IMG/VR virus record: IMGVR_UViG_2529293038_000015
Direction: 5' to 3' (one strand)
DNA from: a virus
Lineage: Duplodnaviria; Heunggongvirae; Uroviricota; Caudoviricetes
DNA length: 12,302 nucleotides
Part shown: piece after piece, positions 1-12,302 of the stretch
How the letters are laid out: each line of letters starts with the position of its first letter
Position numbering within the stretch: position 1 is the first letter of the stretch
The notes under the pieces: model-generated
What the model was told of the DNA's origin: nothing
Database searches by the model: none
Seen by the model: the letters and a program-made list of their open reading frames with translations, nothing else
Translations under genes and position numbers: made by a program

Positions 1-360
1 GGAAAAATGACGGCCAGGATCCGCGTCAACCGGGGCAATCTGCCCGCCATTAAGCTGGGGACAGCCCGGGTCAGACTGGCCCGGCGTGGTGGAAAACTGC
101 AGTACCGTGGCAGTGTGCTGAAGGTGGGTAAATATCTTTTCCGGGATGCGTTTATTCAGCAACTGGCGAATGGTCGCTGGCATGTGATGCGGCGTATTGA
201 TGGCAAAAATCGTTACCCCATTGATGTGGTGAAAATCCCGTTGTCCGGACCGCTGACACAGGCATTTGAAGATGCCCGCGACCGCATCATTGCTGCGGAA
301 ATGCCGAAACAGTTGGGTTATGCACTGAAACAACAACTGAGGTTATGGCTGACCCGATGA
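1..360 (+). CDS. Z: Minor tail / tail completion protein Z, C-terminal part; 5' end lies upstream of the window
   Basis: Frame open from base 1 to TGA at 358-360. Translation (..RIRVNRGNLPAIKLGTARV..NGRWHVMRRIDGKNRYPIDVVKIP..LGYALKQQLRLW) matches my recollection of the C-terminal ~120 aa of lambda gpZ. Stop overlaps the U start (ATGA). Confidence 0.85.
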   Translation, partial: GKMTARIRVNRGNLPAIKLGTARVRLARRGGKLQYRGSVLKVGKYLFRDAFIQQLANGRWHVMRRIDGKNRYPIDVVKIPLSGPLTQAFEDARDRIIAAEMPKQLGYALKQQLRLWLTR

Positions 361-758
361 ACCGACATACACAAATCCGCCAGGTCGTACTGGCACGCCT
401 TCGGGAACAGTGTGGAGACAGCGCCACGTTTTTTGACGGGCTTCCGGCATTTGTTGATGCGCAGGAACTGCCTGCCGTGTCGGTGTGGCTGAGTGATGCT
501 CAGTACACCGGAAAAATGACGGATGAAGATGACTGGCAGGCTGTTCTGCATATTGCTGTCTTCATCCGGGCACAAGCACCGGATTCAGAGCTGGATATGT
601 GGATGGAGAGCACCATTTTCCCGGCCCTGAATGATGTACCGGCACTTTCCGGACTCATCGACACCCTGATCCCACTCGGTTTTAACTATCAACGTGATAA
701 TGAGATGGCCACCTGGGCGATGGCGGAAATCACGTACCAGATCACGTACACGAATTAA
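357..758 (+). CDS. U: Tail terminator protein U
   Basis: ATG 357 overlaps the Z stop; 133 aa; ..ATFFDG..ELPAVSVWLSDAQYTG..DSELDMWMES..ITYQITY aligns with lambda gpU (131 aa). ATG at 345 is an alternative start, but homology begins at 357. Confidence 0.9.
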   Translation: MNRHTQIRQVVLARLREQCGDSATFFDGLPAFVDAQELPAVSVWLSDAQYTGKMTDEDDWQAVLHIAVFIRAQAPDSELDMWMESTIFPALNDVPALSGLIDTLIPLGFNYQRDNEMATWAMAEITYQITYTN

Positions 759-768
759 GGAGGTGGTA

Positions 769-1512
769 ATGACCACACCAAATCCACTGGCAAAAACGAA
801 AGGTGCGGGAACGACGTTCTGGATGTATACCGGCAACGGCGACGCATTTGCGAACCCTTTGTCGGACACTGACTGGCTGCGTCTTGCGATGGTGAAGGAT
901 CTGCAACCTGGCGAAATGACCGCTGATGCAGAAGATGACACTTATCTCGATGATGAAGATGCAGACTGGAAAACGACAACCCAGGGGCAGAAATCCGTTG
1001 GTGATACTTCGGCGACGCTGGCCTGGCGTCCGGGTGACAGCGGGCAGAAAAAACTGGTTCAGTTGTTCGACTCCGGTGAAGTCTGCGCGTTTCGTATCAA
1101 ATATCCCAACGGCACTGTTGATGTTTTCCGTGGCTGGCTGAGCTCACTGGGTAAAACCATTGCCTCAAAAGACGTGATGACCCGCACAGTGAAAATCAGC
1201 GGTGTGGGGCGTCCGTATCTGGCAGAGGAGGGCACTGAAACTGTGGGCGTTACCGGGCTGACGGTGGCACCGGCATCTGCCAGTGTAAAAGTGGGAGCAA
1301 CCACCACGCTGACCTTTACAGTAAAACCTGACGGAGCCAGTGACAAAGCGATCAGTGTGCATTCGACAGATCCACAGACTGCCACGGTGACCCTGAACGG
1401 GCTTGTGGCCACGGTGAAAGGCGTGAAGCAGGGCAGTGTCAGCATTGTGGGCATGACTTCTGACGGCGATTTTGTGGCAGTGGCTGCGGTGGCTGTCAGC
1501 GCCGCAGGTTAA
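769..1512 (+). CDS. V: Major tail tube protein V with C-terminal Ig-like (Big_2-type) domain
   Basis: ATG 769 preceded by AAGGAGGTG (751-765); 247 aa; KGAGTT..ANPLSD..YLDDEDADW..GQKS.GDTS.TLAW..YPNGTVDVFRGW matches lambda gpV, though more diverged than the neighbouring genes. The ORF track's 694 start is an in-frame upstream extension overlapping U. Confidence 0.92.
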   Translation: MTTPNPLAKTKGAGTTFWMYTGNGDAFANPLSDTDWLRLAMVKDLQPGEMTADAEDDTYLDDEDADWKTTTQGQKSVGDTSATLAWRPGDSGQKKLVQLFDSGEVCAFRIKYPNGTVDVFRGWLSSLGKTIASKDVMTRTVKISGVGRPYLAEEGTETVGVTGLTVAPASASVKVGATTTLTFTVKPDGASDKAISVHSTDPQTATVTLNGLVATVKGVKQGSVSIVGMTSDGDFVAVAAVAVSAAG

Positions 1513-1532
1513 CAGGACGATACTCATCATTT

Positions 1533-1557
1533 GCCCCGGTTATCCGGGGCTTTTTTT
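1533..1557 (+). terminator. Intrinsic-terminator-like hairpin between V and G
   Basis: Perfect 7-bp GC-rich stem GCCCCGG (1533-1539) / CCGGGGC (1544-1550), 4-nt loop TTAT, followed by T7 (1551-1557); sits in the V-G intergenic gap. Confidence 0.55.
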
Positions 1558-1572
1558 CAGGTGGAGAACATG

Positions 1573-1959
1573 ATGTTTCTGAAACAGGGCACGTTTAATT
1601 ATGAAAAGCAGTCCGTGGTGCTCAGTGAGCTGTCCGGGCTGCAGAGAATTGAATATCTGGCGTTTGTTCAGCAGCGAACGGCAAAGTTTGATGCCGAAGA
1701 GGGAGAACTGCCGGAGGCTGAACGACAGATTGCTTTTCTGCGGATGGGGATGGATATCAATGCCTGGCTGGTTTCCCGCTCACAGTGGAATGCGGATCAG
1801 TCTAAGGATGTAGAGACGCTTTGCGCATCCGTTATTACAACATGGTCGTATGATGCCCTGGGTGCGGGGGCGGAGATGGTTCTGTCGCTGAGCGGTATGG
1901 GGACCATTGATAATGCCGGGGATGATGAGCATGAGGCGCTGACGCCGGAAAAGTCCTGA
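1573..1959 (+). CDS. G: Tail assembly chaperone G
   Basis: ATG 1573 (MFLK.., as in lambda gpG) with GGAG at 1564-1567; 128 aa; LSELSGLQRIEYLA motif; position immediately after V; ends TGA 1957-1959. Confidence 0.85.
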   Translation: MFLKQGTFNYEKQSVVLSELSGLQRIEYLAFVQQRTAKFDAEEGELPEAERQIAFLRMGMDINAWLVSRSQWNADQSKDVETLCASVITTWSYDALGAGAEMVLSLSGMGTIDNAGDDEHEALTPEKS

Positions 1960-2297
1960 CGCGGGAAATGCAGTTTGTCATGCGGCTTGCCCGGGAGTTC
2001 CGGCGGGCAGACTGGCGGCGGATGCTGTCGGAAATGTCGGCCACTGAGCTTGGTGAGTGGGGCGATTATTTCCGGATGCAGAGCTTCAGTGATGTGTGGA
2101 TGGATGCGCAGTTTGCCTCGCTGAAGGCATTGATCGTGAGAATGGTGTCCGGCAGCAGTGATGCTGCGGTGGCTGATTTCAGCCTTTTACCGGAAGAGAA
2201 CGGGATACCGGAGCGAACGGACGAAGAACTGATGCATCTTGGGGAAGGTATTTCCGGAGGTGTGCGTTATGGACCAGATAGCCAACCTGGTCATTGA
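1573..2297 (+). CDS. T: Tail assembly chaperone G-T fusion made by programmed -1 ribosomal frameshift near the 3' end of G
   Basis: The -1 frame is open from 1537 through 2297 with no independent RBS or start for T; a slippery-like heptamer G GAA AAG (1947-1953) lies 2 codons before the G stop. Arrangement is the conserved G/GT of lambdoid tail operons. T stop (2295-2297) overlaps the H start. Confidence 0.7.
1947..1953 (+). promoter_or_regulatory. Putative -1 frameshift slippery site for G-T (G_GAA_AAG)
   Basis: In the G frame GAA-AAG; in the -1 frame GGA-AAA. Lambda uses G_GGA_AAG; here the P-site codon is GAA rather than GGA while the A-site AAG to AAA slip is retained. Confidence 0.5.
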
Positions 2298-5200
2298 TTT
2301 GGGGATTGATGCGGCAGAGTTTAAAAATGAAATCCCCCGTATCAAAAACCTTCTGAATGGTGCAGCCAGCGATGCAGAACGGTCTTCTGCCCGTATGCAG
2401 CGTTTTATGGAGCGTCAGACTCAGGCCGCCCGGCAGACAACGCAGGCGGCTTCTTCGGCTGCAACAGCCGCATCCGTCCATGCGCAGACGGTGGAGAAGA
2501 ACGCACAGGCTCATGAACGCATGGCCCGCGAGGTGGAGAAAACCCGCCAGCGCATGGAGGCGCTGAGCCAGAAAATGCGCGAGGAACAGGCGCAGGCCAT
2601 GGCTCTGGCGGAGGCTCAGGATAAAGCGGCTGCTGCGTTTTATCGTCAGATTGACAGTGTGAAACAGGCCAGTGCGGGGCTGCAGGAATTACAGCGTATT
2701 CAGCAGCAGATCCGACAGGCCAGAAACAGTGGCGGGATTGGTCAGCAGGATTATCTGGCGCTGATTTCTGAGGTTACGGCGAAAACCCGTGTTCTTACAC
2801 AGGCTGAGGAAGAGGGTACCCGACAGAAAGTGGCGTTTATCCGTCAGCTTAAAGAGCAGGCAACCCGCCAGAATCTTTCATCTTCTGAGTTGCTTCGTGC
2901 TAAGGCTGCCCAGCTGGGGGTAAGCAGTGCTGCAGAAGTGTATATCCGCAAAATGGAGCAGGCAGGAAAAGCCACGCATTCGCTGGGTCTGAAAAGTGCA
3001 GCGGCCCGCCAGGAGATAGGCGTTCTGATAGGTGAACTGGCCCGCGGCAATTTAGGGGCGCTGAGGGGATCCGGGATAACGCTGGCTAACCGTGCCGGAT
3101 GGATAGACACACTGATGTCACCGAAAGGCATGATGCTGGGCGGGGTTATTGGCGGTATTGCCGCAGCTGTCTATGGTCTGGGTAAAGCCTGGTATGACGG
3201 TCAGAAGGAGGGGGAAGAATTTAACCGCCAGCTGTCGCTGACGGGGCATTATGCCGGAGTCACTGCCGGGCAGCTGTGGACGCTCAGTCGTGCTATTTCC
3301 GGGAATGGTATCACGCAACATGCTGCAGCCGGTGCGCTGGCTCAGGTGGTGGGGAGTGGTGCATTTCGTGGAAACGATATCGGTATGGTGGCGAGAGCTG
3401 CCGCACAGATGGAGCGATCGGTTGGCCAGTCGGTCAGCGATACCATAAGTCAGTTTAAGCGGCTGAAGGATGATCCTGTAAATGCCGCGAAGGCTCTGGA
3501 CAATGAGCTGCATTTTCTTACTGCCACTCAGCTTGAGCAGATACGCGTCCTTGGGGAACAGGGGCGTCCAGTGATGCGGCACGGATAGCCATGTCTGCAC
3601 TGGCAGAGGAAACCGGTCGGCGTACTGCGGATATTGATAATAACCTCAATGCGCTGGGCAGTACGCTGAAGTATCTGTCTGATTTATGGAGTCGTTTCTG
3701 GGATGCGGCCATGAATATTGGTCGTGAAGACTCGCTGGATGAACAGATTTCCGCTTTACAGGAGAAAGTGTCGCGGGCGAAAAGACTCCCCTGGACGGCA
3801 TCATCTTCTCAGGTTGAGTACGATCAGCAGCGTCTTAACGAGCTTCAGGAAAAAAAACGCCAGAAGGATTTGCAGGATGCAAAAGAGCAGGCAGAGCGGA
3901 ATTATCAGGAGCAACAGAAACGCCGTAATGCTGAAAATGCTGCACTGAACCGGATGAATGAAACGGAAGCAGCACGACATCAGCGTGAAATTGCGCGTAT
4001 TAATGCCATGCAGTACGCCGATCAGACTGTCAGGGATGCGGCGATACAACGTGAAAATGAACGTTACGAGAAAGCCCTGGCATCCGGTAAGAAAAAAACA
4101 CGCGAAACCCGTAATGATGAGGCCACCCGGTTATTGCTGCAGTACAGTCAGCAACAGGCACAGGTGGAAGGACAGATTGCTGCTGCCAGACAGTCAGCAG
4201 GCATTGCCACGGAAAGGATGACAGAAGCGCATAAACAGCTTCTGGCTCTGCAGCAGCGCATCAGCGACCTGGACGGGAAAAAACTGACGGCAGATGAAAA
4301 GAGTGTGCTGGCCCGTAAAGATGAACTGATTCAGGCACTGACGCTGCTGGATGTAAAACAGCAGGAGCTTCAGAAACAGACGGCACTCAACGAGCTGAAG
4401 AAAAAAACAATTCAGCTGACCAGTCAACTGGCTGAAGAAGAGCGTGCTCAGCGTCAACAACATAATCTGGATATCGCCACGGTGGGTATGGGTGATCAGC
4501 AGCGGCAGCGATATCAGGTACAACTGAGTCTTCGTCAGAAATACCAGCAACAGCTGGAGCAGTTGAGGCGGGATAGTGAGCAGAAAGGGACATATAACAC
4601 GGATGACTACAGAAAGGCCGAGCAGGCGCTGACGGAGAGCCTGAACCGACAACTGAATGAGAATCGCCGTTACTGGCAACAGCTTGAAATTGCTCAGGGT
4701 AACTGGAAAAACGGAGTCCTGCGTGCACTCCAGAATGTCACTGAGAATGCGGATAACACAGCCTGGACAGTGGAACAGTTGTTCACGTCTGCGTTCAGTA
4801 GCATGAGTGACTGGCTGGCGACATTCTGTACTACAGGCAAACTCAATTTCAAATCTTTTACTTCTTCTGTGCTGTCAGATATGTCCAGAATCATGGCTCA
4901 GATAGCTTTAATGAAAGCGGTAAAAGGCATTGCTTCCGCGCTGCCTTTTGATTTTGTAGCCAATGCTGATGGCGGTGTTTATCAGTCGGCTGATTTGAGT
5001 CGCTACAGTGGCACGGTGGTTAACCGTCCGACGTTTTTTGCTTTTGCAAAAGGCGCGGGTGTGATGGGGGAAGCGGGACCTGAAGCCATTCTGCCATTGC
5101 GTCGTGGTGCTGACGGTAAGCTGGGGGGTGTGGCGGATATTGGGGGTTCAGGTATGGCGATGTTTTCCCCGCAGTACAACATCGAGATCAATAACGATGG

Positions 5201-5324
5201 CACGAACGGGCAGATAGGTCCGGCTGCCCTGAAGGCGGTTTATGACCTCGGGAAAAAAGCGGCAGCGGACTTTATGCAACAGCAGGCCCGTGATGGTGGT
5301 CGGTTAAGTGGAGCATATCGGTAA
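2269..5324 (+). pseudogene. H: Tail tape measure protein H, split into two reading frames by a 1-nt frame disruption at about 3537-3588 (pseudogene or sequencing error)
   Basis: ATG 2269 (MDQIANLVIDLGIDAAEF.., cf. lambda H MAEPVGDLVVDLSLDAARF) with GGAGG at 2256-2260. The first frame stops at 3588; the second frame is open from 3537 and ends ..INNDGTNGQIGPAALKAVYD..ARDGG.. like the lambda H C-terminus. Both parts align collinearly to one tape measure protein; combined length ~1018 aa. ORF-track start 2239 is a TTG. Confidence 0.85.
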
Positions 5325-5653
5325 TGGAGACGTTTCACTGGAAAGTGCGCCCGGATATGAATGTGGTATCAGAGCCGAAAGTGGTGACAGTGAAGCTGGG
5401 CGATGGTTATGAACAGCGTCGTGCGGCGGGACTGAATAACCAGTTGTCGACTTACAGCGTGACGATACGTGTTCGTAAATGTGAACACCCATCTTTAAAA
5501 GCCTTTCTGGAACGGCACGGTGGCGTCCGCGCATTTCAGTGGACGCCACCTTATGACTGGAAACCGATTAGGGTGGTTTGTCGTAAATGGTCGGCAAGCG
5601 TGGGGGCGCTGTGGGTAACCATAACGGCAGATTTTGAACAGGTCGTGGCATAG
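5324..5653 (+). CDS. M: Tail tip assembly protein M
   Basis: ATG overlaps the H stop (TAATG at 5322-5326); 109 aa; METFHWKVRPDM..GDGYEQRR..TYSV..FLERHGG..F.WTPPYDWK..EFEQVV matches lambda gpM (109 aa). Confidence 0.92.
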   Translation: METFHWKVRPDMNVVSEPKVVTVKLGDGYEQRRAAGLNNQLSTYSVTIRVRKCEHPSLKAFLERHGGVRAFQWTPPYDWKPIRVVCRKWSASVGALWVTITADFEQVVA

Positions 5654-5662
5654 GAGGCTCTG

Positions 5663-6364
5663 ATGCAGGATATTCCACAGGAAACACATCATGAGACGAC
5701 ACGCCTCACTCAGTCAGCCCAGGTGGTGCTCTGGGAAATCGATCTGACAGAGGTCGGTGGTGAACGTTATTTTTTCTGTAATGAGCAGAACGAAAAAGGT
5801 GAGCCGGTTACCTGGCAGGGGCGGCAGTATCAGGCATACCCCATTCAGGGGACAGGATTTGAACTGAACGGCAAGGGCAGTGCTGCCCGTCCGACACTGA
5901 CGGTTTCTAACCTGCACGGCATGGTCACGGGGATGGCGGAAGACCTGCAGAGTCTGGTCGGCGGAACGGTGGTCAGGCGTAAGGTTTACGCCCGTTTTCT
6001 GGATGCGGTGAACTTCGTCAACGGAAACAGCGACGCCGATCCGGAGCAGGAGGTGGATCAGCCGCTGGCGCATCGAGCAGTGCAGCGAACTGAGTGCGGT
6101 CAGTGCCTCCTTTGTGTTGTCCACACCGACGGAAACGGATGGTGCTGTTTTTTCCGGGGGCGTATCATGCTGGCCAACACCTGCACCTGGACCTATCGCG
6201 GTGATGAGTGTGGTTATCACGGTCCGGCTGTCGCGGATGAATATGACCAGCCGACGTCCGATATCACGAAGGATAAATGCAGCAAATGCCTGAGCGGCTG
6301 TAAGTTTCGCAATAACGTCGGCAACTTTGGCGGCTTCCTTTCCATTAACAAACTTTCGCAGTAA
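5663..6364 (+). CDS. L: Tail tip assembly protein L
   Basis: ATG 5663 with AGGAGG at 5652-5657; 233 aa; N-terminal ~130 aa and C-terminal ~70 aa (..RIMLANTCTWTYRGDECGY..KCSKCLSGCKFRNNVGNFGGFLSINKLSQ) match lambda gpL (232 aa); the central segment differs (see findings). Confidence 0.9.
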   Translation: MQDIPQETHHETTRLTQSAQVVLWEIDLTEVGGERYFFCNEQNEKGEPVTWQGRQYQAYPIQGTGFELNGKGSAARPTLTVSNLHGMVTGMAEDLQSLVGGTVVRRKVYARFLDAVNFVNGNSDADPEQEVDQPLAHRAVQRTECGQCLLCVVHTDGNGWCCFFRGRIMLANTCTWTYRGDECGYHGPAVADEYDQPTSDITKDKCSKCLSGCKFRNNVGNFGGFLSINKLSQ

Positions 6365-6368
6365 TCCC

Positions 6369-7112
6369 ATGACACAGACAGAATCAGAGATTCTGGCGCA
6401 CGCCCGGCGATGTGCGCCAGCGGAGTCGTGCGGCTTCGTGGTGAGCACGCCGGAAGGGGAAAGATATTTTCCCTGCGTGAATATCTCCGGTGAGCCGGAG
6501 GCGTATTTCCGGATGTCGCCGGAGGACTGGCTGCGGGCAGAGATGCAGGGTGAGATTGTGGCGCTGGTCCACAGCCACCCCGGTGGTCTGCCCTGGCTGA
6601 GTGAGGCTGACAGGCGGCTGCAGGTGCAGAGCGATTTGCCTTGGTGGCTGGTCTGCCGGGGTGAGATTCATAAATTCCGCTGTGTGCCGCATCTTACCGG
6701 GCGGCGCTTTGAGCACGGGGTGACGGACTGTTACACGCTGTTCCGGGATGCTTATCATCTGGCGGGGATTGAGATGCCGGACTTTCATCGTGAGGATGAC
6801 TGGTGGTGTCACGGCCAGAATCTCTATCTGGATAATCTGGAGGCCACAGGGCTGTATCAGGTGCCGTTGTCAGCGGCGCAGCCGGGCGATGTGCTGCTGT
6901 GCTGTTTTGGTTCATCGGTGCCGAATCATGCCGCCATTTACTGCGGCGACGGTGAGCTGTTGCACCATATTCCTGAACAACTGAGCAAACGAGAGAGGTA
7001 TACCGACAAATGGCAGCGACGCACACACTCCCTCTGGCGTCACCGGGCATGGCACGCATCTGCCTTTACGGGGATTTACAACGATTTGGCCGCCGCATCG
7101 ACCTTCGTGTAA
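6369..7112 (+). CDS. K: Tail tip assembly protein K with N-terminal JAB/MPN (JAMM) and C-terminal NlpC/P60-like regions
   Basis: ATG 6369 (MTQTESEIL..); JAMM-type motif HSHPGG..SEAD at 6570-6610; Cys/His region (GVTDCYTLFRDAYH..NHAAIYCGDGELLHH). An alternative internal start at 6513 would give 199 aa. The 3' end overlaps I by 103 nt in a different frame. Confidence 0.85.
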   Translation: MTQTESEILAHARRCAPAESCGFVVSTPEGERYFPCVNISGEPEAYFRMSPEDWLRAEMQGEIVALVHSHPGGLPWLSEADRRLQVQSDLPWWLVCRGEIHKFRCVPHLTGRRFEHGVTDCYTLFRDAYHLAGIEMPDFHREDDWWCHGQNLYLDNLEATGLYQVPLSAAQPGDVLLCCFGSSVPNHAAIYCGDGELLHHIPEQLSKRERYTDKWQRRTHSLWRHRAWHASAFTGIYNDLAAASTFV

Positions 7113-7657
7113 AAACGGGGGCTGAAGCCATCCGGGCGTTGTCCACACAGCTCCCGGCGTTTCGTCAGAAACTGAATGACGGCTGGTATCAGGTGCGCAT
7201 TGCCGGGCGTGATGCAGGTGAAACCGAATTATCTGCCCGTCTTAATGAGCCGCTGGCAAATGGTGCCGTGATCCACATCGTGCCGCATCTGGCGGGAGCT
7301 AAAAGTGGCGGTGTGTTTCAGGTGGTGCTGGGTGCGGCGCTGATTGCGGTGGCATGGTGGAACCCTGTGGGCTGGCTGGGTGCCGCGGCTGTATCGGGCA
7401 TGTATGCGGCAGGGGCCAGTATGATCCTGGGTGGTGTGGCCCAGATGCTGGCACCGAAAGCCCGGACGCCCACAGCGACCAGCACGGATAACGGTAAGCA
7501 GAACACCTATTTCTCATCACTGGATAACATGGTTGCCCAGGGCAATGTTCTGCCTGTTCTGTACGGTGAAATGCGCGTGGGGTCTCGTGTGGTTTCTCAG
7601 GAGATCAGCACGGCAGATGAAGGGGACGGTGGTCAGGTTGTGGTGATTGGCCGCTGA
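7010..7657 (+). CDS. I: Tail tip assembly protein I
   Basis: 215 aa; MAATHTLPLASPGMARICLYGDLQRFGRRIDLRVKTGAEAIRAL.. and C-terminus ..DNGKQNTYFSSLDNMVAQGNVLPVLYGEMRVGSRVVSQEISTADEGDGGQVVVIGR are near-identical to lambda gpI as I recall it. Confidence 0.9.
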   Translation: MAATHTLPLASPGMARICLYGDLQRFGRRIDLRVKTGAEAIRALSTQLPAFRQKLNDGWYQVRIAGRDAGETELSARLNEPLANGAVIHIVPHLAGAKSGGVFQVVLGAALIAVAWWNPVGWLGAAAVSGMYAAGASMILGGVAQMLAPKARTPTATSTDNGKQNTYFSSLDNMVAQGNVLPVLYGEMRVGSRVVSQEISTADEGDGGQVVVIGR

Positions 7658-7675
7658 TGCAAAATATTTCATGTG

Positions 7676-7702
7676 AAACCGCCTCCGGGCGGTTTTGTCG
7701 TT
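7676..7702 (+). terminator. Hairpin with flanking A/T tracts in the I-J intergenic region (weak terminator candidate)
   Basis: 8-bp stem AAACCGCC (7676-7683) / GGCGGTTT (7688-7695), loop TCCG, followed by a T-rich stretch TGTCGTTT; located between the I stop (7657) and J start (7718). Confidence 0.35.
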
Positions 7703-7714
7703 TATGGAGCATGA

Positions 7715-12302
<4,588 letters not shown>

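Follow-up and report, generated by a model that had tools for sequence, protein, structure and literature searches.

The window analysed here, 12,302 bases long, is the entire contig AIFB01000003.1 of the Escherichia coli DEC2C draft genome (assembly GCA_000249195.2), with which it is identical in sequence. It carries a lambdoid prophage tail module with the genes in the order Z, U, V, G, T, H, M, L, K, I and J, and the called genes and Pfam families along the contig place H-M-L-K-I-J collinear with phage cdtI and with the prophage of strain E2348/69. Over its first 8.3 kb the window shares 99.8% identity with a prophage of EPEC strain E2348/69 and close to 99.8% with both phage cdtI and a prophage of strain DCE7. 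A four-way comparison with cdtI, E2348/69 and DCE7 revealed 7 substitutions and 4 one-base indels that are private to the window over positions 1–8300, the substitutions lying at 1230, 1242, 1486, 1784, 6446, 6810 and 7333. The exact K protein of the window was found on no other contig in the gene-position index. Further along, the middle of J (8300–10240) differs from cdtI and E2348/69 by about 20–30 mismatches per 500 nt, with nearly none upstream; this divergence is the usual mosaic break of lambdoid host-range genes. At the G/T junction (1945–1959) the lambda G-T slippery heptamer GGGAAAG is absent, its single occurrence in the window being at 6457, inside K, and the 3′ end of G reads CCG GAA AAG TCC TGA.

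The features of the L gene are as follows.

5663–6364, plus strand: L gene, encoding a lambda gpL-type tail tip hub protein (PF05100; 233 aa; EHU50557.1), between M and K
6055–6056, plus strand: insertion 1, G to GG (GGTGGATC versus GGTGATC); the relatives all have a single G; the frame is moved by +1
6056–6157, plus strand: out-of-frame stretch, codons 132–165, 34 aa with 5 Cys
6148–6153, plus strand: insertion 2, T5 to T6; T5 in the relatives
6156–6160, plus strand: insertion 3, G4 to G5; the relatives have G4 or GGGA/GGGC/GGGT; the original frame is regained

These insertions were defined by aligning L with its counterparts in phage cdtI, mEp460, a lambda isolate and the E2348/69 prophage, each of which is 699 nt long and encodes 232 aa. 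Compared with the cdtI and E2348/69 genes, the window gene contains no substitutions and exactly three one-base insertions. All three are extensions of a homopolymer by one base and they are spread over about 100 nt, although insertion 1, in which a single G becomes GG, has a weak homopolymer context. The gene is thereby longer by a net 3 nt and encodes 233 aa without a stop codon. Elsewhere in L the off-frames also contain stop-free stretches as long as about 33 codons, so that an open shifted frame of this length is unremarkable.

The out-of-frame codons encode DQPLAHRAVQRTECGQCLLCVVHTDGNGWCCFFR, in which 34 residues substitute for 33 (I132–P164). Translation of the adjacent frame of the window yielded ISRWRIEQCSELSAVSASFVLSTPTETDGAVF, which matches lambda gpL residues 132–163 (PDB 8iyk) at 32 of 32 positions, an agreement that cannot be due to chance; ISRWRIEQCSELSAVSASFVLSTPTETDGAVFP, encoded in the same adjacent frame, represents residues 132–164 of gpL in that structure. 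Compared with lambda gpL (PF05100; PDB 8iyk, 8iyl, 8k35, 8xcg and 9e7m), the window protein has the same position between M and K, unchanged residues 1–131 and 166–233, and the four cysteines of the [4Fe-4S] cluster, which lie downstream of the shifted stretch (C174, C183, C206 and C213 in the window, corresponding to lambda C173, C182, C205 and C212). Unlike in lambda gpL, codons 132–165 are one base out of register, and unrelated residues stand in place of the HDI-domain strands conserved as ISRW...AVFP.

To compare the two frames, we used 84 L genes (80 from IMG/VR together with those of cdtI, mEp460, the lambda isolate and E2348/69), representing 68 distinct DNA sequences and all 699 nt long. 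Within the 99-nt segment there are 19 variable sites, 15 of which fall at the third codon position of the lambda frame. Read in the lambda frame, the changes comprise 17 synonymous and 4 non-synonymous ones, versus 2 and 19, respectively, in the frame of the window. In 30 homologues with identities down to about 60%, from Salmonella, Citrobacter, Yersinia and Edwardsiella, the segment contains 13 invariant and 3 nearly invariant residues; none of these 16 positions survives in the annotated frame of the window (0/13 and 0/3), whereas the adjacent frame encodes them intact. Judged by these patterns of substitution, the lambda frame is the frame under selection. Together, these results bear out what the earlier note had read from the DNA: that the middle of L does not use the lambda frame, as the alignments, the adjacent-frame match and the 84-gene comparison all indicate, and here the frame differs from that of all homologues as well; that a +1 change near 6056 and a further +2 in the T and G runs at 6147–6160 give a net +3 and 233 rather than 232 aa, with coordinates that agree with the alignment to within 1–2 nt; and that the resulting Cys-rich segment of about 33 residues (34, with 5 Cys) lies upstream of the Fe-S cysteines. 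The lambda gpL sequence that the note gave for residues of about 131–163 was also correct.

We next considered the effect of the shift on the protein. The window L remains a significant member of its family, scoring 274.7 bits against PF05100 (cut-off 25), whereas the wild-type cdtI L scores 331.6 bits; the frame shift thus costs 57 bits. In gpL, the HDI beta-sandwich comprises residues 1–166 and the iron-binding domain residues 154–232, with the cluster held by Cys173, 182, 205 and 212 (PMC10721106). Given these domain limits, the shift does away with the final strands of the hub domain and with its connection to the Fe-S domain and spares the cluster cysteines, and in its annotated frame the window L lacks a complete HDI beta-sandwich with the conserved segment 132–164. 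AF2 models of the window and wild-type proteins, built on a 30-sequence alignment, were of low confidence overall (mean pLDDT 43 and 49, respectively) and are read here for local contrast: the low-confidence wild-type model has strands at 131–143 and 147–153 with pLDDT of about 55–67, and the likewise low-confidence model of the window L has no secondary structure in the same region, with pLDDT of about 23–28. If the insertions are real, the L product is very probably non-functional.

The allele was then sought in other collections. L occurs at 10,585 places in 4,339 complete E. coli genomes, with a median of 2 and up to 11 per genome. The 702-nt allele was not among these 10,585 places or among 186 phage places, the best identity in either set being 99.6%, and among the matches listed in complete genomes and phage records each spans 699 nt. 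An exact 25-mer over insertion 1 had no matches in IMG/VR, the JGI metagenomes or the GTDB representative genomes, and the wild-type 24-mer at the same site had at least 120 matches in IMG/VR alone. Likewise, the T6-CC-G5 pattern had no matches in IMG/VR, the JGI metagenomes or the GTDB species representatives, and the T6-CC-G4 pattern had none in IMG/VR. In sum, neither the allele nor an intermediate was found in more than one independent isolate, in any of these collections for insertion 1 and T6G5, and in IMG/VR for T6G4.

Protein searches gave a consistent picture. Among about 15 billion proteins, the exact window L falls in a two-member cluster and is encoded on AIFB01000003.1 only, and the shifted segment used alone as a query returned no matches. 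Of 543 representative homologues of L, the 120 listed are each at most 85% identical to the window protein, and therefore none of those 120 can hold the shifted segment. All eight representative homologues for which the sequence was read contain the wild-type segment, and wild-type clusters have up to 10,043 members. The other member of the window cluster (P0002), 74 aa long, is a fragment encoded on an unrelated ENA contig of 523 bp; it starts with MVLFFRGRIML and lacks the shifted segment. This N-terminus implies, by inference from the protein, a T5-CC-G5 allele, from which alone it can be read; the G run would therefore have been lengthened or miscounted independently at least once.

L is not the only gene of the contig with a lesion. 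The others are listed below.

3561–3567, plus strand: one-base loss in H, GG to G at 3566 (GGGGCGT versus GGGGCGGT in the relatives); private to the window
10256–11680, minus strand: IS4-like element in J, with a 13-bp target duplication, CAGCAAACTGGAG, at 10243–10255 and 11681–11693
11102–11150: lesion cluster in the IS4 element, three private one-base homopolymer changes within about 50 nt
11959–11961, plus strand: one-base loss in the 3′ part of J, C4 to C3; the closest intact J, that of strain SCU-172, has C4

The loss at 3566 splits the tape-measure gene H (2269–5324) into ORFs 2269–3588 and 3591–5324. Complete E. coli genomes offer 2,016 homologous places, the best of which is 99.5% identical over 202 nt; all 2,016 therefore have the extra G, and the loss occurs in none of them. 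The IS4 element represents a genuine transposition, because a 13-bp target duplication flanks it, and removing the element together with one copy of the duplication from the sequence makes J continuous again. The J::IS4 junction was not found in any complete E. coli genome of the collection, and the exact fusion ORF is on AIFB01000003.1 only; strain PI7, an apparent carrier of the junction, was rejected, as its match consisted of separate pieces joined together. Within the element, the three changes (T4 to T5 at 11102–11106, CC to C at 11124 and G5 to G4 at 11147–11150) split the transposase into ORFs 10269–10907 and 11081–11596; the best identity of the window element to 9,755 IS4 places in complete genomes is 99.4%. 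Last, the C3 lesion splits the C-terminus of J into ORFs 11739–12002 and 12050–12302.

In total, the 12.3-kb contig has 8 private one-base changes of homopolymer length, 6 of which lie in two clusters of three, and both clusters are in multi-copy DNA, namely the L gene and IS4. In a simulation, two clusters of three within 110 nt arose among 8 independently placed events with P of about 1.25e-5, and the clusters are therefore not expected from independent events. There are also nearly as many private indels as private substitutions on the contig (8 versus about 9), whereas the mutation spectra of E. coli usually contain many more substitutions than indels.

The indels with their homopolymer context, their uniqueness to the contig, their clustering and the selection on the lambda frame are direct observations; from these we infer that the three insertions in L are most likely sequencing or assembly errors in a 2012 draft contig rather than mutations of the bacterium. 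Because an E. coli strain commonly has several lambdoid prophages whose L genes are almost identical, the L region would be repeat DNA, and the consensus of this stretch may have rested on very few or poor reads. The probable source is a flow-based platform that miscounts homopolymer length, possibly aggravated by the mixing of reads from paralogous prophage copies. Three errors that by coincidence were all insertions would have brought the frame back after 34 codons, and with no stop in the off-frame there the gene caller would report an intact 233-aa 'L'; the true gene would be an ordinary 699-nt, 232-aa L, as in cdtI and E2348/69. For three random single-base gains or losses, the chance of all being insertions is roughly one in four, and it is because of this coincidence, together with the stop-free off-frame, that the ORF looks intact and escaped flagging as a pseudogene.

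The L changes have the characteristics of an artefact: each is a one-base change in a mononucleotide run, they are private to one assembly, and they are clustered locally beyond what independent events would give. Private homopolymer changes with a second cluster in a repeat and no substitutions are the expected signature of a flow-based consensus built from thin reads. Other E. coli genomes from the same centre and year were sequenced with 454 Titanium reads and assembled with the Celera assembler (PMC3491183), which may bear, circumstantially, on the platform used for DEC2C. Homopolymer miscalls and consensus errors at thin coverage are likewise single-base changes in mononucleotide runs, confined to one assembly, clustered, located in repeats and apt to split or shift ORFs; unlike usual homopolymer errors, those in L sum to +3 without a stop, so that the gene passes as intact. 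Most probably, then, EHU50557.1 is a mistranslation over 34 residues and DEC2C has an ordinary L. The split H, the split IS4 transposase and the split J C-terminus of the contig are also suspect. The biological importance of the L finding is little. Its practical lesson concerns data quality: when clustered homopolymer errors add up to a multiple of three, checks for frameshifts and pseudogenes miss them, and the product is entered in protein databases as an odd but intact variant.

An alternative explanation is that the insertions are real slippage mutations in a decaying prophage, one frameshift having inactivated L and two more nearby having followed by drift, with the frame restored by chance and the product non-functional. 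The prophage is independently defective, as shown by the IS4 element in J with its proper target duplication, and every indel sits in a run in which replication slippage can happen. Four of the seven private substitutions in the 8.3 kb are non-synonymous (one in V, one in G and two in K), which is compatible with relaxed selection in a phage with an interrupted J, and these seven could themselves be real strain-specific changes or more consensus errors. Natural frameshifts do occur in this lineage: the decayed E2348/69 prophage likewise has one-base frameshifts in tail genes, with its own deletion in H at the equivalent of window position 4380 and a J annotated as frameshifted. The E2348/69 deletion differs from that of the window and, being present in several independent complete assemblies, appears to be real. 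The E2348/69 lesions stand singly and apart and recur across several independent complete assemblies, in contrast to those of the window, which are clustered and unique. Decay would also have to account for three indels in about 100 nt without a substitution in a 702-nt gene, in addition to the IS4 triple (P of about 1e-5 if independent); for the failure to find, in IMG/VR, the single and double intermediates that were searched there, or the final allele in any collection; and for private indels being about as numerous as private substitutions, against the usual E. coli spectrum. We therefore regard decay as an unlikely source of the insertions.

It is far less probable that the allele is a genuinely compensated '+ + +' arrangement kept by selection, in which the 34-residue Cys-rich segment is tolerated or confers a new property beside the Fe-S domain. 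The ORF is open with a net +3, and the Fe-S cysteines and everything else outside codons 132–165 are unchanged. Formally, the arrangement is the same as in the triple-plus revertants of T4 rIIB. The T4 rIIB triple mutants (the Crick–Brenner '+ + +') have their altered residues in a region that is dispensable, and they were obtained as revertants by selection for function. As there, three nearby +1 insertions restore the downstream frame and leave a short altered stretch; unlike there, the stretch in L is a conserved structural one, the prophage of the window is defective, and the allele, a singleton, is probably not real. The lost segment is among the best conserved of the family, with all 13 invariant and 3 nearly invariant positions gone; the shift lowers the Pfam score by 57 bits, and in the low-confidence AF2 models the strands at 131–143 and 147–153 vanish as pLDDT falls from about 55–67 to about 23–28. 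Moreover, no selection on tail function is possible with J interrupted by IS4 and both the 3′ part of J and H split on the same contig, and the allele has been seen once. A viable 233-aa gpL with a rewritten hub stretch and five Cys added upstream of the [4Fe-4S] domain, possibly with altered metal binding or tail-tip assembly, is accordingly a product that we hardly expect to exist; if true, it would offer a rare natural case of a conserved virion protein with a frameshift compensated by three insertions. When the earlier note called the indels compensating, it was right that the frame is restored and the ORF intact, and it left open whether the new segment is tolerated; the word most likely describes three errors that coincided rather than evolutionary compensation.

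The lambda tail module normally has programmed frameshifting at the G-T junction. That ribosomes likewise shift at the insertion sites of L to give wild-type gpL can be all but dismissed, even though the annotated frame gains a U UUU UUC heptamer through the T6 run, since ribosomes would have to shift three times, each at a different site, to make the wild-type protein, the first of these sites (GGUGGAUC) is not slippery, and the insertion-site sequences are in no homologue, the homologues having GGTGATC and T5CCG4; with no conserved slippery sequence at any shift point, programmed frameshifting was rejected.

The reading of the insertions as errors finds a parallel in other public L genes, several of which contain one-off lesions. 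In IMG/VR, one locus (L112) has 11 single-base deletions in L, nearly all at third codon positions; two others (L159 and L141) lack one or two bases at polymorphic third positions, in part at sites that are also deleted in L112; and L087 and L179 have one one-base indel each. In the window, the extra T and G lie directly beside polymorphic sites 489 and 495, a coincidence that is not significant given 10 polymorphic sites within wild-type positions 480–500. A consensus of collapsed repeats as the sole cause of the window insertions was rejected, and is considered as a possible contributor only. Among singleton L proteins, six (P0003–P0006, P0008 and P0009) contain internal tandem duplications of 30–60 residues. 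The one-off L lesions in other drafts have the appearance of consensus or assembly artefacts that arise when paralogous prophage copies are collapsed, and assembly artefacts are evidently common in multi-copy prophage genes.
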